64,000 bases of DNA from Trichoplax sp. H2 (lineage: Eukaryota). Positions within the stretch are counted from its first letter, which is position 1. Each line of letters opens with the position of its first letter. The notes below the pieces were generated by a model. That model did no database searches. It was given only the letters and a program-made list of their open reading frames with translations, and was not told where the DNA came from. Shown here piece after piece: positions 5,365 to 48,955 of this stretch. The stretch lies in contig NOWV01000109.1 of the NCBI GenBank assembly GCA_003344405.1, forward strand, positions 1 to 64,000, in the 5' to 3' direction. A program made the translations under genes and the position numbers.

Positions 5365-7002
5365 CCTGCATCTGAGCCGTACTTGGATCTAGTTCATTTA
5401 GCCATTCTAGATAGTCTTTAAAAAGACATTGCTTTAACCATCTCCAAAATTACCTTTGTAATTTCGGTTGAAACTTATGTGCTCGAGATGTTAGTGATTA
5501 AAATACTTTTAACATGGTTTGCGATAATTGCTGCTCAAATCGACTGTTTTACTGATGCTAACAAGTACAGCATGTTAACTGATACTGTAGGAGTACTATG
5601 TTTATTAAAGTGACATCGTGACCTTTATGATCAATTTTAATGGTGTGATTGTTCTTTTAAGAAAATATTATTTATAACGATGCGTTCCTTTGTACTAGCG
5701 TTAACAAGTTCAATGCACCCAATAAATAGAGAAAGTTGAAGTTTCGTTGATGCTCCTATTTTGTAGTATTTATGTGCAAACAGTTGGCAATTTCTAATAG
5801 ACGAAAATTCGCGTGCTGACTTTAATTTCCCCATAAGTAGTTTATAAATTCAATTGCTTGTATGAAAACATTTTTATAATATTGTATTAGTTAGTATGTC
5901 TTACAAAAATATTTGTTATGCTGTACTAAACATCATCTTATCAGTACTTCATGGTTGTTAGTACAAAAGTCACCGTTATGGTATTTCCTCTATAGTATTA
6001 CATTAATGTCCAGTCAAATGTTTGAAAGCGCATGGTTGAATTAGTAAGCATAAACGTTAATAAGTTTTACTGTAGCGTAAATCTCTTAATCAAATTGCCC
6101 ATTTTTATTATATAAAATACACACAGCGTTTTAGTATATTTATAAGTACGCTAATCAGTTGACTTCGATTCTGGAGGATCGAAATACTAAACAATTTCAA
6201 ATTCGTATTTGATAATGCAAAAAGAAAATCACAACAAAATGATAAACAGACATCATATATCTATTGTACTTTTAAATGGCCACTATCAAAAAGTTTATTG
6301 TTTTCAATTTTGTATTAAATAGAGTATAAATTAAAGATGGTATTAACCAACCGAGATGATGCATTCTCACGAAGGATAATTTTGTATTAACCGTAGTTAG
6401 TTAAAAAGGACATCACGATAGCGGGACGTTATGATGTGAGCATGCCATGGATAAATGTCCTATACCAACAACATTATATTATTTTAAAGTATCTGTTATC
6501 ACTATTTATGAAGCCCTTAATTCAATTTAATGAGTTCAGAACAGATTTAGAAGTAATTCATTGACACTCAGAAAAACTTCAAATAATTTTGATGATATAA
6601 TTAATGATGCAATACAGCAACAGTAACCATTGGCAATCCACTATATTAGGCGATATCTCAAAATTGTTGTTTTTCTTTTATATAAATGAGTAGAACTCCA
6701 TTTATCATTGCTGGATATTTTCGCAGATATTAAACAATGTAAATTTAGCCATAATTTTAGTACACTACGCGTTGACAATGATATATGTCTAGACCAGAAA
6801 AAAAGAACGAAGCAACGGCCAACAAGAGAGAATAATGAATTTTGTAGATTCAGGGCCGAAATAAAATTCCAATTTCTAGTTTTAAAGTCATAGATCCAAA
6901 CAAGTTCTTATTTTTATACGTATATGTCATAATAATGTTTGTTACTCCATATGTCTAATTATAATCAACAAGGAATAGAATATCATTCCGGTATACATGA
7001 TC

Positions 7003-7729
7003 TTAAAGTCTTTTATCTCTGTTGGCCTTTGGTAGCGGTCTATATTGAGATTTGGCTTCAATTGATTCATATCTATTAGGCTCTATTGAATGCCTAGGAG
7101 AATGAGGCCGAAATTCCATTTGCTCCATTTGCTGTTGTTCATATTGAGACATACGAGATTGAGGATATTGCAAGTGTGGTGGAGATTGATGTGAAGGATA
7201 TTGCCTTAATTGTACTTCAACCTGGCGAGGATCGTGATAAGGTGGTTGTGGATAGTTTGGCCTGGGAAGATATTGTGGTGGTGATCTGGTTGCTGGATGA
7301 TCTCTTTCATCTCTTAAACCTGGTCGTAAATGACGCTTTTCTTGTAAACGTTTTAAGCGGGTAGCTTGTGATTCAGGAATACGACATCTTACAAAACAGC
7401 TAATGACAATGACTAGAATTAAAAGAAATGATCAAAAGTAAGTAGTGAAATTTTGATTAAGTCTAATAATTATCCACTATTTTTATAGGGTGAAATTTTT
7501 GTAGAGAAAACATGCCACTTATGCGAAGAATTGGCTCTAATGTAATAACGGATATTGATTGATCATTAATGAATCGTTTGTCTTCGAATATACCTAGAAT
7601 GATAAGTCCTCCCAATGACATTGCCATAATTTGCCATACTCTTAAGACTCCAACTTTACGATCAAGGAAGCCATCTGTAGTTGTTTGAGTAGTTGTAATA
7701 GCTCTCTTCGGTCGAATATTGCATTCTCC
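7003..7729 (-). CDS. TMIE-like single-pass membrane protein (last two exons; 5' signal exon not located)
   Basis: Exon 7729-7594 reads GECNIRPKRAITTTQTTTDGFLDRKVGVLRVWQIMAMSLGGLIIL. After a phase-1 intron, exon 7412-7003 reads VIVISCFVRCRIPESQATRLKRLQEK, then a Pro/Gln/Tyr-rich tail ending RDKRL*. The TM region resembles TMIE ([30 protein letters not shown], recalled). The ORF track misses this gene. Confidence 0.72.
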
Positions 7730-10700
7730 CTAGAGTAGCAATAATGAATAGGATATCAGTAATACAATATTACAGAAGTTCAGAACAACGACGATTGCTT
7801 AACGTGATAGAAAAACATACTGATTATCCTAGGAGACATAACATCATTAACTACTGCATTTTAAAATATAAAATAACATTACCTTAATTAAACTAGTTTA
7901 TTCTGTAACTAATGTAGTTAAAAATAGTTGAAAATAATGGCTACAGACAATTTAATCTAGCTTAGCTTAATCAAGATTATGATCGCCAACTGTATTTGAA
8001 GCGTTATTAAAATTATTAAATATTGTAAAATATATTTATGACCTAGGATGTTGCGACTGATGAGGTAGAATTTATTATACTGAAAAACGGATCGTTATTT
8101 CATTAAATGTAGTACATGAATTAATTGTGTGCTATTCTTTTAAAAAAATAGTATATTAAATAAGTTGTAAATGGTATGCATGATATATATAATCTTTAAT
8201 TTAATAAGTTGTTAAAGTGGGGTCCGACATAGTTTAGAAGTTGATTGCTATTCTACTTATTTGAATTCATAAGTTTCCGTTCACTTATGAATACTGTCTG
8301 ATAATATAATCTAAGATGCGTTAGTCTAAAGCTAACTATTATTATCGGTTTTATTTTAAGAAGGATTCCAGAACTACCATAATTTCTAATCTACTGCATA
8401 GTATGGCTATTAAGTTTTTATAACTGTAAAAGACGAGATTCAAGAGTCTGATTCATTTTGGATGAGAATAGGCTATTATTTTATCAATTTCTGCACAAGG
8501 GTGTAAGGTTACATTTAATTTAAGATCAGGTTGCCTTAGGCTAGATTGTGATTATATCAACTTAAAAGTTTAACAATTGAGGTTGTATTTGAATAGCAAC
8601 GAATTTTACGTTTGTATAGCTTTAATCAAATTATCTAAACAGTGGTAAGAAACTTTGAAACAACAATTAATACTATAATTTATGTAGTATAGTTATCACG
8701 ATTGGTAAGTTAACGGGTACTAAGAAGGCGATCTATTGCAATAAGATAGGCAGGGTGAAATGATGTCGATTTTTATGCATTAATTTATCGTCTTTTTCTC
8801 TCAAATTTCAAGAGGTTAGTTTATAAAAAAATATCTTTAGACTTGGATTACTTGTATAAGAAACGATAAGATTTCTTAATCATTAAAAAGCGTTTCGGAA
8901 TCTTGGTTAAATTTTTTGATTGCACAGCGCAAGAACTAAGTAAATGTAGCAATTATTATCCTGAAATGTAACGGCATTACGTGTCCCACTAAGCTATAAC
9001 AGAAAACTTTAGAATTTAAAACTGTAAAAGATTTCGTAGACAATCTCTATTAATTTTAGAATTCTTAATTAACTTATGATCTTGTCTGATTATGATACCA
9101 GAGACTATCAACTAAGTACTGAAATGTCTAGGAAACTATTTGTTAATACCGCATATACCCCATAGATTTATTTTGATGTACAGTATAGCCATTCGACAAG
9201 TGCTTTTAATCTAATGGTCTTTGTCCCAAATAAGAATAAATCCTCTTGGTTATTTTAGATTTTCTTACGCTATGTCTATCCATCCTTAAGCATTCAGTAG
9301 AAGCTGATAAGTATCTACTGTTCGTATCAGAGATTTATGTGGTTTTATTGCTACTTCATCATTTTAATGTAACTACGTTGGGCCTTTCTAATTTATGGAG
9401 ACATTGAAGACGATATGAACTAAAAAATGTATTTGCAGTTAACAAGCATGAAGGCTTATCTACTCTTTTCGAGAAAAAATAGATATATAGTAAGAAATCA
9501 TAGACTGATTTGTGAATTAGACTAACAAAATTTATGCAACTGTAATAATTCAGTTAATCAGTAAATATTCCTGCGTTAATCCACCGTGCAATAAAGAGTA
9601 AGGAAGTAAAAAGAAGAGGAGACTCAATTTTAACCCTTTAATCGATAAATGTACAGTACAGTAGAATAATCATTAGACGGGACAAGGCTAAAAACAAATG
9701 GAATATAAAATAATTTCATCAAAATTTCAAACATAAAGTTCGTTTAGAATGCTTAAAAGTGTGACTGAAAAGGCTATGATGATCGTTATTATTCAAAATG
9801 GCGAACATCGGATTGTCTAAAACGGATGTAAACTTTATCAATCATTTTTTAATCCTTATCTTATTCTTGTATCACTTACTTGTTGGGGATAAATTAGTAA
9901 TAACACGGCAACTAGGTAGAATAGATAACGGATTAAAATAAGTTGTTGCTTTGAATTCATTTCTTATCTAAAAGCGAAATGGAATGATTTAACTTCGATC
10001 CAGTGGAATAGCTGAAATAATTTTTCTACTTGACTGTAGTTTACTTTCTATCCGAAACAATATAATCTAATGAGGAAGCCTTCTATGAAGGAAGTAGAGC
10101 TGAAAGCCTTCAAATTAATATAGAAAAGAATCTATAATCAGTATTAAACAATAAATGATCATCTTTATTGACGGTAAGTGGCAATTACGACTAGTGGCAG
10201 AATTGATTGGCAGTACTGGGATGGGTGAGAAGATCAATGGCCCTTTGCATTGATAATAGACTTGATGATTATTTATGTCGGCATGGGGTTTGTTCTTGCA
10301 CAATCAGTAATTCATAAGAATAACTCGATGTCAATCAAATCAATAGATGCAATTTTCAATAGGATCCTTTGCTGTATAAGATACTATATTGAAACGCAGT
10401 CATTTTTTCAAATTAAATGGAAATAATGACGTCAAGAAATTTTTTCACGTCCGTAGCTATTGACGGCTATTACAACATTTACAAGGGTATGCTAATGATA
10501 TGAGCCAACCAATAAGGAGAATTTGCATTCATTTGTTGGAATAATGATTGCTTCAAAATTGATGGTAGAATTTAGTATTAGCTCTTGCTAGATTGAAATG
10601 GTTAAGAAAACGATAATGGATACTTTAAATGGATATGGTCATGATACTATCAACATTGTGATTCATTAGTCGAGAGAAATATCAATCGAGCGGTTTATAG

Positions 10701-12951: not shown

Positions 12952-15900
12952 TTAAACTGGAGACGGTCGGATGATGTTTGCCTTACGATGTTCGACACTG
13001 TCAATATCAGGTTTGTTTTTGTGATTGTGATTATCTTTCTTGGTTTTATATCTGCCTAGATCTAACATTAATTTTAATTTGTAAACACGAATAAGCTTCC
13101 TAGCTCTCCTTTTCATTGCCTCTAAAATCGATTTCGGTTTCTGGTTGATTATTAAAAAATGCGATATTAATAGAAAAATATCTCGATAAGATCATAAAAG
13201 TGTTATAAAAGAAAACTAGGCTATGCAACTCTATATTAAAAGGAAATTAATAGCATGAAATTAGAAGAAATAAAAGTTAGCTACGGAAAATTTACATGAA
13301 TTGACTTATTTTAGTTAAGAAGGATTAGAAGTAGAGCAATTTTATATATTATAACATATCGATATATTATAATGAAAGAGTGCTACTATCTATTTTTACC
13401 TTTGGATCGGAAAAATCAACTTCCTGACGTGCATCAATCAGCCATTCTACTACTAGAGTAAGGAATCCTGCACCAATACCTGCTAGCAATAAAATAAATA
13501 CACCATACGTGTTTTGAAAGCTCATCTGGACTTTATTACTTGTAGATCCAGTGGTACTTGAAGTCAAGCAGGAGCTATAACGGGCATACCTACCATACGC
13601 GTATATAGAGAAGATAACGAGAAATACGATTAGCTAGCCATCTTACTACACCTTCTTTCGGTCATTATGGATATCTATATAGGATTGAATATGCTTACAA
13701 GGAATCATATCTATAATAAGCGCAATAAAATTGGTTAATATTGAATAACTTTCTTACCATTTTTTTAATGTTGCAGCAATAAAATTATTCTGGCGCAATT
13801 GCAAGATCGCAGTATTAAATTCCGCTGCATATGGAGAGCTTTTACTAAAAGCTAGGCCGAAATTGTCTTTTAAAAATTCTCCACCTGTTGTTGTCAGGAT
13901 GCAATTTCGATTTTTAATAAAATTTAAAGTTGTTGAATCCCCTAAATATGCATATCTGCCACTCAGGACGCGACTAATAGCAATGCTGAGATTTTTCACA
14001 TTGTCCATTTTGCCACTCATTTCATAATAAGGAGTTGTTGCGCTATTGCGTATAAACGTATCTAAACTACTGCCTTCCAACGTTCCATAGCGTATTGCAT
14101 TTTGGCTAACTAATTTAGCCAAGGAATCAATGTCTAAATCAAATAGCAAAATGGCAGAAAATAAATGGTCATCGCATTAGATATGAAAATTTTATAAATT
14201 GGAGTTATTCTTAGTTAAGATTAGTAGTTCAAAATTTATAAAATTGTTCACAAGAACCTATGTAGTTCAAAGTGTAAATGCAATGTAAAGTATGCTTGTT
14301 AGTCCAAGAGAAAAGAAAACACTACGTAAGCTCTTAGAGAAATAGATCTAATTATAAGACAAAAAAAATGGGATATTTTTTTACGATATAAGGTGGCTTT
14401 CCATTCAAGTTGATGCCTGGCAGCTACTGTAACATGCAAATGTAGCTGGCCTTGCAAAAACTGTATTGAGCTCGATTGTACTAATCCATTTTGGTTATGT
14501 TTTATTAATATCTCAGATAGACTAGATTGTTTTAAATCAGACGGAAATTTATTCTATTTACCTGATTTTAATTGATCAACAGTTAAAAATGCTGCTAAGT
14601 TTGCCGTATAAGAAGCAATTAAGATGCAAGATGCGAACCACCATAAACCAGTAACCATACGACCTGATGTATTTCTAGGTGTTGCATCAGAGCCCTGCTG
14701 AAGGAAAGCAGTAATTGCATGCCAGAGTGAGTTTCGTAAGGTTATCATAAGGACACTTTTTTTATGTTGTTGTTTCCATTTTTTATATATATTGATAGCG
14801 TTTTCATCGCTGATGCTTTCTGGTAATTTCAGTTTACGTAGTGCCGATCCAAAAAATCCAAATGGGCTTAAACGTGTAATGATGTGAACGCAAACTGCTA
14901 TTAACAAGCAGAAACCAATAATTGCAATCCATAAGTCAAATGTAAATGGAGCAAAAAATTGAAATATGGAGCTAGATTTAATTTCTGGCTTTCGAATTAA
15001 AATTGTGGTGCCTTGATCGTGAAAAGGTATTGAAAATTTAACCGCGGTTGAGCGTTGTGGAGTGATTGTTAGTGTCGCTGCTGCTATATCAGCCGTCTAT
15101 GAACATCAAGATAAATTAAAATATCAACTTGTCTAATCTACTAAAAAGCTCCCTAGCGTCGGTGAGATTTAATGACACAGTTTCCGTTAACATGAGTTAA
15201 TCTTCTTGAATTAGTTAAGGGTTCATTACGTGCATATTAATTAAAATATACGATTTGTCAAAGCGAGTTAGAAATTAACTGCGTCGTTTGACTAAGTTAG
15301 TTGGTTAACTCTTAACGGTATGAATTTAATTCTAGTCTTATAGTAGGCTATCACTGACTATCAGTAGAATGCACTGTCTATGAGACTGTAATAGCCTCAC
15401 TGCTATTCAAATCATTTACAGAGACACTTTAATCATGTAAGATACGATGATTAGTCTTGAATGATTACCAGGTAGCTTTGCAAAGTTTGACTCAATTTTT
15501 CCGATTATCTATTAAATTAACTGAGGTATATAAATCCGTAAGTGGATTTGTTATGAATGATTAATCTTTTAAAACCTGAAAGAACTGTATGGTAAGCTAC
15601 TTATAAAATCAAATAAAGTGTTTTGATCACATTAATTAGCTAAGATTGAATCATTGGCCTAATGATATTATATGGTGTTGCTGCCTTCTATAAAACTCGT
15701 ATATTGGGTATTATTTATCTAAATTTAAGTTGTAAACTGATCTACTTTAAATAATTAGGTATGCATAAGTTGTATCTGTCTATCTATATTGCGTAAAGCG
15801 TTAGAAGAAGTTGCTAGGGTTTCTTGAAATTGATTGATCTTCCAACCATGAAATTTTCAGAGAATGGTATATATTAATTCCACCATTACAAGCTATATGT

Positions 15901-18900
15901 GCGTGTAAGATTAACTTGCAGTAAATCAACTTACATCATCTAACAGTTCTTTGATCATACCATCCCAAGAGCCATTTCTGTATGCGCCATACTGTCCATC
16001 AGGGACTAAATGGAGTTCATACTTGAATTTTAGATCCTGACTAAGCCTATTTAGTAAATCTACCATAAAACCTTCGTATCGGTCGTTGCCTACCAAGTTA
16101 TCACCAGTCTTCTCTACTGTGAATGGTGTTAGCTATCAATATTTATAAACAGGAAAAGTAGTGGTTACGAATCCGTTATTTATAGGACTAGATTGATTCT
16201 GGTAAGAAATCTTTTATTAGATTAGAAAGCTATATACACTATCCAATCATTAAATCTCAGCTGAGGTATAAAATGTTAATATCGGTTATAAAGATTTGTA
16301 AACTGACCAGAACGCTGGTTACATTGAAAAATCTTCCTTCTAGAGCGGAACTGAATCTGCTCAAATTTTGAGAATTATTCATCGAATTCTCTTTCCAAAC
16401 TAATCCATTATTATTCGTCCATGTTGCAATCTTATAAAAAGTAATTGATGGTCGCATATCGCTATCAGTTTGTACCACTTTAAAATTTATAAAATTATTT
16501 CGAATTCTTAGCATTGTCAAAATAATATGATATCTTACCGGGGACCAGGTATTGCCAATTAATTCTTTAATTTCATAGGATGTATGAGCAGGACCGTAAA
16601 GTGAATTAAAGGCAATTTTACCAGTGGCTCCTTCACCGGATGACTTAATTAAATGAGCCCGTCAGATTAAAAGAAAAAATAAATGTTTAAAGGATGCAAA
16701 GCGATTTCATGAAGATAAAATGGCAGTTAATATTCTATTTTGCTTTTATTCAAGTATTAAAGTGCCAATGACCGATATGGATATTGGAAACCATTTGGTG
16801 TTCTCTCGTAATTTTTATTTTGATAATAGCAAACCATACCTGTACTATGCTGGAGAATAAACTAGGACCTTCGTTCCAACTTGTTAGTGGCATTGATGAA
16901 CAAGATAAGTTACTGGGGGGTCTAAATTGTGATGTGGCTAAATATCTTTGCAACCCATAAGCGAAAGCCCAAACGGAATCGTAGTATTTCAATTCCATAG
17001 GCTAAGTATTAACAAAATTTTGTTAACGAAATCACGAATAGATAAAATTAACTCCAATAATTATTCTTTTCCTACGAAAACAATGCTGCATACTTAATAA
17101 TATATCATATTTTTGAACTATAGTTGCTTTTAGTAATAGCATTTTGTTTATTTGATTGGATTAAAGCCAAATTATCTCTCAGGTTGGCTGAGAAATTAAT
17201 TGAAATCATAGTATCAACTTCTGTCCTACCTCAAGATCTGTATGATATTTATTAGTCCAACTTTGCTGCAACTTTTGAAATCGGTTTCCATTCTTATAGG
17301 AACTTTGAATATTCATTGCGGATTTTAAGTGATCCAAAGGTTTGATTAATTCTTTCTAATGTTTTAATCAAAATTAAGTTTAATTATTGTCTGCAAAGAC
17401 ACCGGAGACAGATTAACTAATTTTTTTCATACCTGATCAGTTGTACCGCCTAATAATATCCAAAGATAGTTTACTGTGGTCATATTTAAATTATTCGCCT
17501 CTTCGAGAATAATCGCAGCTTGCTGAGATAAACAGCTTAGCAAGATAATTTTTGCACCTATATACGTAAACATTGCAATTTTTTTGATTTCAGCGATGTC
17601 AAACACTAAATAGTGATAGACAATTTTGAAAATAGCTTTCAATAGATTTTTCCTTGAGGTCTGTATAGGTTGAACGATTACTCGATTGTCAATATTTGGC
17701 AAGATTTCATTAATACTTGTGTATCTGCAATTTTACCTGTAGCCTTGATATTGCTCAGATAGGTTTGAATAATTTTAGGATTATTAATTTCAGAAGTAGC
17801 AAATTTTTCAAAAGATAGTATACGCCAACCTTTCGATGAAGCAATAACTTGAAATTGTGCTACCGAATTAATACCTATACAAGAAGGTAGCAGTGAATTA
17901 GGAATCCATCATAATAATCATTTGTCGAAAGAACTAATTTAAGACTTATGAAATTGCCTAGCATCGTTATGCTAACAAGCCATACGACTCTTACCGAAAT
18001 CTGTATTGGACACAAATATAGCTGCATAAGTCCAACGGAATCGCTCAAATACAGCGCCAACCATTTTACCTTGATAGTAATCGCTTGGTGACATGCGAAT
18101 AAGAAATGGGAAATTAGGCTTATTTTCAAGACCTGGATTCGTTGCTGAAGGCGATATTTGAGGAATATGTAATTCTGCACATAAATTTTGTACAGCTCGA
18201 ACATCACTTGACGTTAATGGTCCAATAATAGCCCAGACATCTTTTCGAATAATTTGGCACGCTGATGAACGATAACATCGAAAATTTAACAGGATGATAA
18301 GATTAATTAGTAGGCTTACTACTTATTATAGCTATCGACACTGCTAGTAAGGTAATTGACCTGCTTGAACGTTTTCATAAGGTCGATATAGGTTACTTTC
18401 ATAAATATCCGCGGAAAGATGAATATTATTAAGAATGAAGGCATTGCTATTGATTTCTGTAATCGCAAGTTCTATAGCTTGTCTATTGCGAAGATTGGTA
18501 GGAATAATAACACCTACATGAAATCAGGTACATGATTATGATCAATTAAAAAGGTAAGTATTGATGATACGGTTTTGTATCCGGCAGAAACTAATACAGA
18601 TTAATATGTATTAGATAACTACTCGGTAATCTACGTGCAATTTGTACGTGATTAGCCTTTCTTTTCATATAAAATTTTCGATGAAATCAAGTATATTACT
18701 ATAATTATAATTAAAATGCATAGAGTTGACAACATGGTTTTGTATACGGCAGAAAATATTATAGATTAACCTATATTAGGTAACTACTCTAATCTACGTC
18801 CAATTTATAGTGATTAGTGGCATTTTCTTTCCTATAAAATTATCAATGAAATCAGGTAGGCCTCCAGTATTATGATTATAATTGAAAAGGTTAGAGTTGA

Positions 18901-39233: not shown

Positions 39234-42200
39234 CTAGACTTGTCTTCCATGTCGGTAATCTTCATAATGGAGAGGTGGATCATTTCGACGATCATAGTGT
39301 TGTGGTGCACCGCGAGGCACATAATATGGATTTCCGTGTCTGTACATATCTTCTGGGGGTGAATCACGTACATAATGGCTATGGCCACGACTACTACTCT
39401 GCACGCGCAACGGCATTTCAACATGTTCCGGAGGATAATCCGGATATTGTCTAACATGAGTTCGATAGGAAAAATGAAAATATCGAATGGTTACTAACTT
39501 ACCGTATATAATTATATAGTTTCAGAAAAAAGTTAGTAAAAACAGAATGACGTCGCATTCATGTAAATCTAACCCGCGATGATCGAGCCGGCTTGTTTCG
39601 GCATAATGATTATCAACATATTCACGATTAGACTGTTGAGCTAATTGTCTAATAGCCTTTTTCTTATTAGATTCCTTTCGTAAACAAACACAGCAACCAA
39701 TCACGGCGATAAGAACTGAAATTATAGCATTGAATTCAAATTAATTGGTAATTTTGCTGCAATCAACAATAACATTTTGCGTTTACAAGTACGCATATAC
39801 ATGTAGCTTACCGATTCCGCCAAGAGATCCGCCACCGATAGCTATCCACTGCCAAACTTTTAGTCCTGCAAAAGGTTTATCCCAAAAACTTACAGTTGGT
39901 GTAGCACTTGGAGTAGCACTACTGCTGGCTGCAGTTTTCGTAGTAGCAGCTTGTGTTGGAGGGATAACAGTAGCTTGTCCAACCTTATACGACATGGCTG
40001 TTACCTACATTTCAAATAATACTAAGCTATAAGGCGTATTTTTAACAAAGATACCATGCATAAAACATTTGGCATAATACTACTGCAGCAAAATGTAGAA
40101 CCATTCTTCATAAAGATAATACTAGCCCACGAATGGTAATAAAAGTAATTGTGGGTAATTTTATATCGTTAGGCACTACATAACTTACAGAATTTTGATT
40201 GATTGGAATCGATAAGGTTTGATCTTGTACTTTTTTGATTAGCGTCGCAGAGGTATTATTTATAGTTGAGTAACTGCCTTGGAATAATACCTAAAGATAA
40301 GAGAAGTAAATGAATGATATCGTCGTTCAGCTACTAAAGATTACGATAGTGACCTAATACTTACCGTAATCGATGTTGTGTTAGTAGCTCTATTAACTGA
40401 TACTGTTACATTCTTAATTGTGGAATCCTATTTGTGAATTATATTATAATTAGTGATATTATAAAATTAACAGGTAAGACTCACACGGTTGTTTGGAGAA
40501 ATCTAGTCAAAATTTACGAAATAATACCGATAGGCCTAGAGACTTTTTAAATTCTGCAATGATATTAGCTTGACTAGAGGCCAAATTATCCTCAGCTTCG
40601 GGGAATATCACCTTGATAAGCAAAAGCACGGACATTTACTGTTAATTTCTATTTCTTTCAATTTAGTGTTTATAATTTTCAATCATGTAGCTTATTAGTA
40701 CCAATACCTGATATGATTGCACAATGGTTGTACCATCGTCTATAATGTTATGAGAGCAGATTTATTAAATATATTGGACAAAACTTTATCACTGTAATTT
40801 TTTACCGTTTAAAACTTAGAACGTTGCAAACAGAATTGCAGTACAAACCTTTGCATTCCGTTCCCTGTAGAGTTTGACCTGTTGAACAAGAATTGACACA
40901 TCCACCTAAAGATGCTACCTTTCCACCACTGCATGCCGTACAATAGTCTGGACTGTTACGGCAACTTACACATTTGTTAGTATTGCAAGCTATGAGGTAG
41001 TATGAATATTTGACCATTAGAATTTCAAATAAAGTATCAATTCAGGTACTCGTTACAAGATAACAGCAACGTACCAAAGCAATGTGTTGAATTCCCAGTA
41101 ATTGTGTAAGTTCCAGACGGACATGACGCGTAGCACATTAAATTGTATAAGTAAAATCCGGTCTGACACGCAGTACATGCTGATGAACTTGTACATGACG
41201 AGCATGCACTACCACAAACTAAGGATTGACAATACATTGGTAATCTAGGTCGATTACTGTGTAGGATAGAATAAAAATAATAGTTTCTACTCACGAATGG
41301 GTAGCACTCCACCATTTTCTGCCATTGTACGAGCACAGGCAGCCGCTGCTGGAGGGCATGTCACGGAACCAGAGCATCCAGAAAATTGTAATTTTTGACC
41401 AGTCGTTGAGCACGTCATTTCCTGATCTATAAGAAATATAATTAGCACGTTCAATATTGGACCTCTTCCTGATCCAAAATATTAAATATAGTTGAAGGCA
41501 ATTCAATCTTGATAGCTAATGCATTTAAGTATGTCACATAGTTGTAGAGATCTATACAAGTACGAGTATACATATGAGTCCATTTTAAACAAGACATAGT
41601 GTTTCTGCAATGTCCTATTTCTTGTCTTACTATTTCCGGCTGTAGCTTTAATTACAGTCTGCCCTGATGTTGTATTCCTGTAGCAGCGATATTCAATACA
41701 TTGAGCTTTTTCAACATTTACAGATTGTCCTAGTGTTCCCATCGCACATTTGGAGTTGGCACCAAACTTATTCCCACAGTCTATGATTGTGAGTATTTTT
41801 AAAAGGGTGATATTACTTGCCAGTATGAAAACTATCTAGGGCTAGTGTGATTTAAAAATTAAAGTCATTGCATTGAAAGCTATATTTTAGCTTTCCGATC
41901 AAATGAAATAGATAGGCAGTAAAGCTTACTGTTACTGAGACCAGTAGAGGAGCAGACAGAAGCACTTGCTGGCATAAAAACAGTACAATTGTCCATGTAC
42001 AGATTAGTTTGACAGAGTCCCTACAGTTATTTTTATAGCAGTTTTATTGTTAATTGCATAAAAAAGTAAAAGGGTATGGAAATTTTTACTACACACATCG
42101 TCAGTATTTCTGTATTATATGCTACCTGTGCAAAATAATCGAAAGTGCAACCGGATGTCGCCTCTTTAGAGCACGCATATGGATAGCTAGCTTGATTTTT

Positions 42201-47769: not shown

Positions 47770-48955
47770 TCCTTATGAGCAGATCCTTGCAAACTTGAGC
47801 AGTTGGCAATGAATGCTTATAGAGTGTTCACCACATCCACTATAAATATAGTTCCAATTTCTCATGAGCAGATCCTTGCAAACTTGAGCAGTTGGCAATG
47901 AATGCTTATAAAGCACATCCACTATAAATATAGCTCCAATTTCNNNNNNNNNNNNNNNNNNNNGTACGAGTTATTGTTTCTGTTTTCTTTCTAATCACAT
48001 GGGGCAAGATTGAAATCATCATGGCAGGGTCGTGTCGTGCTCCACTTGTGACTTCTCTTTACCTTCCAGGAGCTCTTTCATGTTGAGATCCTTGCAAACA
48101 TGAGCAGTTGGCAATGAATGCTTATAAAGTGTTCACCACATCCACTATAAATATAGTTCCAATTTCTCATGAGCAGATCCTTGCAAACTTGAGCAGTTGG
48201 CAATGAATGCTTATAAAGCACATCCACTATAAATATAGCTCCAATTTCTCATGAGCAGATCCTTGTAAACTTGAGCAGTCGGCAATGAATGCTTATAAAG
48301 TGTTCAACACATCCACTATAAATATAGTTCCAATTTCTCATGCGCAGATCCTTGCAAACTTGAGCAGTTGGCAATGAATGCTTATAAAGTGTTCATTGCA
48401 AACTTGAGCAGTTGGCAATGAATGCTTATAAAGTGTTCATTGCAAACTTGAGCAGTTGGCAATGAATGCTTATAAAGTGTTCAACACATCCACTATAAAT
48501 ATAGTTCCAATTTCTCATAAATAGATCCTTGCAAACTTAAACAGTTGGCAATGGATGCTTTTAAAGTGTTCAGCACAACTACTGTAAATATACCGTAGTT
48601 TAAATTTCTCGTGAGCAGATCCTTGCAAGCTTGAGCAGTTGGCAATGAATGCTTTTAAAGTGTTCAGCACAACTACTGTAAATATAATGTAGTTTAAATT
48701 CCTTATGAGCTGAATCTTGCAAACTTGAGCAGTTGGCAATGAATACTTTTAAAGTGTTCACCACAACTACTGTAAATATAGTTTAAATTTCTCATCAGCA
48801 GATCCTTGCAAACTTGTGTAGTTGGCAATGAATACTCTAAAGTATTCACCACAACTACTATAAATATAGTTCCAATTTCTCATAAACAGATCCTTGCAAA
48901 CTTGAGCAGTTGGCAATGAATACTTTTAAAGTGTTAAGCACAACTACTGTAAATT
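47770..48955. repeat. Minisatellite array with ~87-bp unit and 81-bp and 45-bp variants, spanning the assembly gap
   Basis: Core ttgcaaacttgagcagttggcaatgaatgc recurs about 13 times. Right-hand copies carry caactactgtaaat instead of catccactataaat. Confidence 0.95.
47944..47963. other. Assembly gap (20 N)
   Basis: Run of n characters. Confidence 1.

Follow-up and report, generated by a model that had tools for sequence, protein, structure and literature searches.

A three-exon gene on the minus strand

The window, a stretch of 64,000 nucleotides of the Trichoplax sp. H2 genome (contig NOWV01000109.1, positions 1 to 64,000), contains a complete, transcribed gene with three coding exons on its minus strand. 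The following features were assigned to the locus, listed in the direction of transcription.

9961 to 10068, minus strand: 5′ untranslated region; RNA contigs reach 10056-10068 and in-frame stops precede the ATG
9880 to 9960, minus strand: coding exon 1; ATG at 9960, residues 1-27 (MNSKQQ...IYPQQ), phase 0 end with a GTAAGT donor; encodes a hydrophobic N-terminal segment predicted to be a cleaved signal peptide (probable)
7730 to 9879, minus strand: intron 1; 2150 nt, GT..AG, phase 0
7594 to 7729, minus strand: coding exon 2; 136 nt, residues 28-72 and the first base of codon 73; short ectodomain (C30, RPKR 33-36, Thr-rich 39-45), W59 (7636-7634) and the outer half of the membrane helix
7413 to 7593, minus strand: intron 2; 181 nt, GT..AG, phase 1, within the membrane helix at W+14
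7003 to 7412, minus strand: coding exon 3; last two bases of codon 73, residues 74-208, TAA stop at 7005-7003; inner half of the membrane helix with C78 (7398-7396), elbow R83-I84-P85-E86 (7383-7372), basic cytosolic helix 88-101 and a Pro/Arg/Gln-rich tail predicted to lack regular structure
6900 to 7002, minus strand: start of the 3′ untranslated region; RNA contigs extend beyond 6900

Between 7003 and 7729 the minus strand carries two stretches that are open from stop to stop (7729-7463 and 7431-7003). The junction of exons 2 and 3 is marked by the donor GT (7593-7592) and the acceptor AG (7414-7413). Joining position 7594 to 7412 yields ...RVWQIMAMSLGGLIIL-V-IVISCFVRCRIPESQATRLKRLQEKR, in which the valine is specified by the split codon, and the longer spliced reading across this junction is ...RVWQIMAMSLGGLIILVIVISCFVRCRIPESQATRLKRLQEKR... 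Intron 2 interrupts the valine codon 73 after its first base (between G and TC) and is therefore a phase 1 intron at W+14. The initial annotation of this DNA had placed a phase 1 intron 13 whole residues past the tryptophan, and this is what the spliced sequence displays. The acceptor of exon 2 is situated at 7731-7730 in phase 0. The first exon, which had been considered missing, was located at 9960-9880 with the help of the first ten residues of a deposited protein model, and RNA contigs join it to the remainder of the gene.

The joined coding sequence (9960-9880, 7729-7594 and 7412-7003) comprises 627 nt and encodes 208 amino acids. Its translation equals GenBank entry RDD40175.1 over all 208 residues, with GT..AG borders at both introns, and an in-frame stop lies two codons upstream of the ATG. 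RDD40175.1, annotated as 'hypothetical protein TrispH2_007118' [Trichoplax sp. H2], was found by a protein search with the exon 3 translation. The gene is not unknown, as it has been deposited in Trichoplax sp. H2 as a hypothetical protein, and a precomputed match to the Pfam TMIE family is already attached to the TrispH2_007118 model.

Transcription and splicing

Assembled contigs from the RNA-seq runs X5, X6 and X13, all of one study, were compared with the window. Both introns (181 nt, 7413-7593; 2150 nt, 7730-9879) were skipped exactly in contigs of all three runs. The skipped stretches carry CT..AC ends on the plus strand, which correspond to GT..AG on the gene strand. The DNA-like run X1 was unbroken across both introns. 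The 5′ ends of the RNA contigs clustered at 10056-10068, and on the 3′ side the contigs continued beyond 6900; judged from the length of one contig, the 3′ untranslated region may end near 6430. Apart from introns 1 and 2, no further splice joints were reported in the RNA contigs. These contigs show the existence of a spliced form, not its level or exact ends.

Some RNA contigs of all three RNA-seq runs mapped within intron 1, at 8001-9747. Their depth was below that of the exons in X5 and X6, while a contig of X13 at 8216-8518 reached an exon-like depth (22.8 versus 23.7). The loose contig ends at 8067 and 8216 have TTGTGTTTG in common. An Rfam search of 6300-10300 gave no match, and no ATG-initiated open reading frame of at least 30 amino acids is present in the intron 1 segment 7950-8700. 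The intronic contigs could derive from intron retention, from non-coding RNA or from DNA that was carried over. They showed several mismatches to the window, compared with hardly any in the exons. At position 7696 the window has T, but X6 and X13, two of the three RNA-seq runs, read C; in the gene's orientation ACA becomes GCA, which replaces Thr39 by Ala in the Thr-rich ectodomain. This variant is likely a strain or allele difference.

Genomic neighbourhood

The upstream neighbour, on the minus strand at 13000-18322, is an ionotropic glutamate-receptor gene, with an ANF_receptor match of 92 bits at 17975-18322 and Lig_chan (96 bits) and Lig_chan-Glu_bd matches at 14557-15096. This gene and the one described here are set apart by the start exon, by the stop in front of it and by the points at which the RNA contigs end. 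Neither tblastn nor blastn detected a second copy or a repeat of the gene in the 64-kb window, and none of the 64 other open reading frames of at least 75 amino acids in the window matched Peptidase_M8 at E≤0.001. Since the reading frame is intact, spliced, expressed and conserved, a pseudogene is unlikely.

Elsewhere in the window, an open reading frame on the minus strand at 41040-41360 gave a weak match to the Cys-rich repeat Furin-like_2 (25.5 bits; cut-off 28) and is probably one exon of a gene for an extracellular Cys-rich protein. The assembly has a gap at 47944-47963, filled with 20 N.

The spliced protein matches the TMIE family

TMIE is a helper subunit of TMC, a channel of hearing and touch. 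Hair cells cannot transduce mechanical stimuli without it, and in the worm it forms part of the TMC-1 complex (PMC9605866, PMC8256367). Searched against Pfam, the spliced Trichoplax protein reached 38.2 bits with TMIE (PF16038; E 1.3e-9), above the gathering cut-off of 27 bits. Residues 54-88 align with positions 7-41 of the 85-position profile, that is, with 35 positions within its N-terminal 41%. The runner-up families had E-values of 0.027 and 0.044, both under their own cut-offs. TMIE was also the best match of each of the two exons when searched alone, in both cases under the cut-off: exon 2 gave 12.1 bits (E 0.17) on profile positions 7-27 and exon 3 gave 17.6 bits (E 0.0033) on positions 21-41. 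The two single-exon matches are colinear on the profile. Among solved structures the sole match was chain 7usw_D, C. elegans TMIE, with an E-value of 4.6e-6 and an ungapped alignment from V55 to Q88.

An exhaustive phmmer search of 1.84 billion representative proteins (E≤1e-3) returned eight matches: the protein itself, P0002, one repeat protein and five TMIE proteins. The five TMIE proteins cover residues 34-119, and each of them scores 63-103 bits on Pfam TMIE. E-values to bilaterian TMIE ranged from 4.4e-5 to 7.9e-4. P0002 is a placozoan-like fragment of 120 amino acids with 47-50% identity to the Trichoplax protein. The 956-amino-acid repeat protein (P0003) was rejected as a relative; it belongs to a different family and matches tail residues 100-126 only. 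A reciprocal search had been suggested for the locus, and all five non-placozoan matches on the membrane region turned out to be TMIE, with no other family among them.

In two word-limited profile searches PF16038 was carried by 102 of 104 and 70 of 71 matches, respectively. The named matches came from arthropods, Ciona and vertebrates; neither search returned a named cnidarian, sponge or ctenophore. Since the first of the two missed all vertebrates, these lists are no evidence of absence outside the named groups. In a protein atlas the TMIE cluster ranked second by features with 0.89 (bar 0.9), behind a cluster without a common Pfam family (0.90), and all structure rows had TM scores below 0.33. 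Foldseek found no match of the AlphaFold2 model in the PDB at E≤0.001 (best 8.3), as expected for one helix plus disorder. A metagenome scan for more placozoan-type copies matched 580 pattern stretches, none of which was confirmed.

A tree of 40 TMIE sequences (132 columns) was calculated with a quick method. It grouped the Trichoplax protein with P0002 (support 99) on a stem of 4.06 changes per column, and the composition of the pair was flagged as deviant. Owing to the long stem, the unresolved placement of the pair and the flagged composition, we derive no claim on orthology or rooting from this tree. Five marine or metagenomic proteins (P0005, P0108, P0109, P0110 and P0113) formed a clade with a support of 97; they are canonical TMIE proteins with CRIPRTRKEIEA. 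Should any of them originate from a non-bilaterian, this clade would bear on the date of TMIE origin.

By its sequence, the Trichoplax protein is very probably a true TMIE homolog. It is best classified as a divergent member of the TMIE family and is probably an ortholog. The central reading of the initial annotation, a TMIE-family gene in a placozoan, is borne out by the Pfam score, the PDB match, the phmmer search, the predicted architecture and the position of intron 2.

Intron positions in Trichoplax and human TMIE

The position of human intron 2 stated in the initial annotation can be read from the names of disease variants. In Table 1 of PMC8256367, p.Trp57Ter is c.170G>A, and two variants, c.211+3G>C and c.212-2A>C, are assigned to intron 2. 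The latter two names imply that human intron 2 splits codon 71 (W57+14) behind its first base, in phase 1, in agreement with the position and phase given in the annotation. In Trichoplax, intron 2 interrupts codon 73, which is W59+14. Aligned position and phase are thus equal in the two genes.

For human intron 1, the variant IVS1-2_98delAGCCCAGinsC (PMC8256367) puts the start of exon 2 at c.94 and thereby suggests phase 0 after codon 31. Trichoplax intron 1 has phase 0 after codon 27. In both genes intron 1 directly follows the segment for the signal peptide, which is a predicted one in Trichoplax. The distance from intron 1 to the tryptophan is 26 residues in human and 32 in Trichoplax. As the ectodomain lengths differ, the agreement at intron 1 is one of phase and general place only.

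Predicted architecture

The hydropathy profile contains two segments, centred at 13-17 and 62-78. AlphaFold2, supplied with the 40-sequence alignment, predicted helices at 3-23, 58-82 and 88-101, the last two separated by a break at 83-87 (mean pLDDT 63). The tail is rich in Pro, Arg and Gln and has a net charge of +8. Worm and mouse TMIE are described as having a cleaved signal peptide, a single transmembrane domain, a linker shaped like an elbow and a helix in the cytosol (PMC9605866). The layout predicted for the Trichoplax protein, namely signal peptide, short ectodomain, membrane helix, elbow, cytosolic helix and basic tail, fits TMIE.

Two short motifs had been pointed out in the initial annotation. 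The RPKR sequence proposed as a furin-type site is present at residues 33-36 and cleavage at 36/37 is possible; the protein has three R-x-[KR]-R sequences (RPKR 33, RLKR 91 and RDKR 204), the last two in the predicted cytosolic part, so that the 'furin site' may be a chance occurrence and was rejected as evidence. PQPPY is found at 126-130 as described and is not a PPxY motif; the canonical PPxY is PPQY at 117-120, which is absent from P0002. Little weight is attached to the RPKR site, to PQPPY and to the match at human R92 discussed below.

Conserved and divergent residues

The residue spacing reported in the initial annotation from the tryptophan of the RVW motif was reproduced exactly in the spliced product. 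Counted from W59, the offsets are C+19 (C78), C+23 (C82), R+24 (R83), P+26 (P85) and R+35 (R94). They are consistent with C76, C80 and P83 of human TMIE, which we take to be the numbers of these residues. The numbering of human W57, R81, R84 and R92 and of c.211/c.212 agrees with PMC8256367.

In the worm complex, TMIE contacts TMC-1 through W25, the palmitoylated C44, R49 and R52 (PMC9605866). R49 and R52 correspond to human R81 and R84, and W25 to human W57 (PMC9605866). R52 hydrogen-bonds TM8 of TMC-1, and its position is hit by deafness mutations (PMC9605866, PMC8256367). In the ungapped alignment W59, C78, R83 and Glu86 of the Trichoplax protein stand opposite worm W25, C44, R49 and R52. 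With the tryptophan, the cysteine and the first arginine matching, three of the four contact residues described for the worm are kept.

The frequency of these residues was determined in 165 fetched proteins, not counting the repeat protein P0003. The ungapped pattern W-x23-R-x-P is present in 140 of them; the remaining 25, including P0002, are partial or gapped. A cysteine at +19 is found in all 140 members counted and a cysteine at +23 in 111. At +27, the position of human R84, 139 of the 140 proteins have arginine. The lone exception is Glu86 of the Trichoplax protein, and P0002 likewise has Glu at this position. The arginine at +35 that had been matched to human R92 is indeed there, but its value as evidence is low, since in this column 79 of the 140 proteins have D, 49 have R and 8 have N.

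R84 and the RTRKEIEA motif had correctly been described as not conserved; the former is replaced by Glu and the latter reads E-S-Q-A-T-R-L-K. In the 40-sequence alignment the T, E, I and E columns of R-T-[RK]-x-E-I-E are at least 90% conserved and differ in the Trichoplax protein, as does the near-invariant C77 column. On account of Glu86 we file the protein as a divergent homolog rather than as a canonical TMIE with the full set of TMC contacts. In the comparison with P0002, 23 of 28 residues are identical in the core (71-98) as against 32 of 90 in the rest of the alignment, which points to constraint on the helix-elbow-helix core. The two proteins also have the tail blocks VE[VI].LRQ and PHSPRHS in common.

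Proposed function and alternative explanations

Taking all observations together, a divergent TMIE homolog acting in a TMC-type role is the best explanation and a reasonably probable one. We infer a membrane protein of type I that crosses the bilayer once. The signal peptide, residues 1 to approximately 27, would be cleaved off, leaving about 30 outward-facing residues that include the Thr-rich stretch. The helix 58-82 would span the membrane, with W59 at the outer boundary and C78, the presumed counterpart of the palmitoylated worm C44, at the inner boundary; W59 and a palmitoylated C78 would thus bracket the membrane helix. R83-I84-P85 would form the 'elbow', from which R83 could hydrogen-bond the TMC backbone. 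The basic helix 88-101 and the net-positive, disordered tail would be cytosolic and might bind acidic lipids. If it resembles TMIE of C. elegans and vertebrates in this respect, the protein would be seated on the outside of a TMC channel protomer beside TM6 and TM8, where it might help the channel to reach the membrane and to gate. Glu86 would either need a compensating change in the partner or mark a changed function.

Whether the Trichoplax protein still works as a TMC partner, as this analogy suggests, we regard as evenly balanced. Glu86, the differing C77, T87 and E-I-E columns, the match to 35 of 85 profile positions and a tail without lysine clusters count against it. Placozoans have TMC genes according to PMC7003098, the available text of which leaves the presence of the TMC1/2/3 class unstated.

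A true TMIE homolog might no longer act on TMC, or might never have done so. It could serve another partner or function as a general small membrane adaptor, and its Pro/Tyr-rich tail (e.g. PPQY 117-120) might be used for sorting or for docking of a ubiquitin ligase. Such a role is conceivable, though rather unlikely. Glutamate at a position that is otherwise arginine, the missing RTRKEIEA motif together with the partial Pfam match, and the very long stem branch in the tree would all agree with it, as would a tail unlike other TMIE tails, yet with blocks common to P0002. Roles of TMIE in nicotinic acetylcholine receptor regulation are covered in a review (PMC8256367). What speaks for the TMC-type role instead is that the tryptophan, the palmitoylated cysteine and the first arginine of the worm contact set are retained, that helix, elbow and helix form the part most conserved relative to P0002, and that TMC genes are present in placozoans (PMC7003098).

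Chance likeness of an unrelated single-pass membrane protein, with a hydrophobic helix followed by a basic juxtamembrane stretch, is highly improbable. The matched stretch of 35 profile positions is short and consists mostly of membrane helix, where composition alone lifts scores; single exons stay under the Pfam cut-off, the phmmer E-values to bilaterian TMIE are modest, and the TMIE cluster of the protein atlas fell short of its bar and was outranked by a family-less cluster. Against this stand a score 11 bits over a curated cut-off, with the next families seven orders of magnitude weaker in E-value, and the finding that, among 1.84 billion proteins, phmmer gave five non-placozoan matches to the membrane region, all of them TMIE. 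Moreover, the W-x18-C-x3-C-R-I-P spacing is ungapped, position and phase of intron 2 are as in human TMIE according to the published variant names, signal peptide, ectodomain and membrane helix follow in the same order, and the ectodomain Cys and D-x-[FL]-[LE] align with arthropod sequences.

That the exons are not a gene of their own but the 3′ end of a longer upstream gene (e.g. the glutamate-receptor gene at ~13,000-18,300) or a decayed copy of a neighbouring family is extremely improbable: the upstream neighbour is on the same strand and the start exon was not visible to the earlier reader, but the ATG of exon 1 has an in-frame stop ahead of it, contigs of three runs stop at 10056-10068 with two joints only, the intact reading frame equals the deposited 208-residue model, and the window holds neither another copy (tblastn, blastn) nor a Peptidase_M8 match among the 64 open reading frames. 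The initial annotation had named best hits to another family, and a longer gene or a fourth M8 copy, as findings that would speak against TMIE. The TMIE matches, the start exon and the lack of a further copy dispose of both.

Implications of a placozoan TMIE

The locus is a real, expressed and divergent TMIE-family gene in Placozoa, for which we infer the function as a TMC partner. Trichoplax is an animal without neurons or hair cells. A placozoan TMIE would place the family in such an animal and move the origin of this auxiliary subunit back to at least the common ancestor of placozoans and bilaterians. As a natural variant at the deafness-linked R84 position, Glu86 may be useful for structure-function work.

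It is tentatively proposed that the TMC-TMIE module predates neurons and hair cells and works, with a rewired interface, in non-neuronal placozoan cells, for instance ciliated epithelial or secretory cells. If this holds true, the rewired interface, with Glu86 in place of an otherwise universal arginine, implies a compensating change in the placozoan TMC, and a small, divergent TMC-TMIE pair might open a new way to reconstitute TMC channels heterologously.

The find is modest in that a GenBank entry with an automatic Pfam TMIE match existed, placozoan TMC genes were already known and the TMC role is a proposal. A full-text literature search, which covered few subscription papers and main texts rather than supplements, found no paper discussing TMIE in a non-bilaterian. 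'Tmie' occurs in PMC7003098 in a reference title only, and in the available text of PMC10973136 and PMC9060560 TMIE is mentioned for vertebrate hair cells only. The supplements of placozoan single-cell atlases may already list the gene.

Comparison with known TMIE proteins

C. elegans TMIE is chain D of the TMC-1 complex (PDB 7USW/7USX/7USY/8TKP). From the R-x-W motif to the R-I-P elbow the Trichoplax protein aligns with it without gaps, and the predicted layout, with a cleaved signal, a single membrane helix, an elbow, a helix in the cytosol and a flexible basic tail, resembles that described for the worm protein. The two differ in that worm R52 is replaced by Glu86 and the post-elbow sequence 'RTK.QI' by 'ESQATRL'. 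In addition, the Trichoplax tail is longer (123 residues past P85) and rich in Pro, Arg and Gln.

With human and mouse TMIE, the product of the DFNB6 deafness gene, the Trichoplax protein shares the W57-R81 (+24) and W57-R92 (+35) offsets and the phase 1 intron 2 at W+14. In contrast, human TMIE is described with four exons, compared with three coding exons in Trichoplax; R84 is replaced by Glu, and the lysine clusters described for the human C-terminus (PMC8256367) are lacking in the Trichoplax tail.

The TMIE-like proteins of arthropods (Limulus, ticks and spiders) and LOC108950928 of Ciona were the best matches in the full-library phmmer search. They display 38-45% identity to the Trichoplax protein over approximately 38-77 residues, comprising the end of the ectodomain, the membrane helix and the elbow. 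Likeness to the arthropod proteins extends into the ectodomain, with an N-terminal Cys and D-x-[FL]-[LE]-x-x-V. Unlike the Trichoplax protein, the arthropod and Ciona proteins keep CC, R-I-P-R-T-[KR] and E-I-E, and they reach 63-103 bits on Pfam TMIE as compared with 38 bits in Trichoplax.
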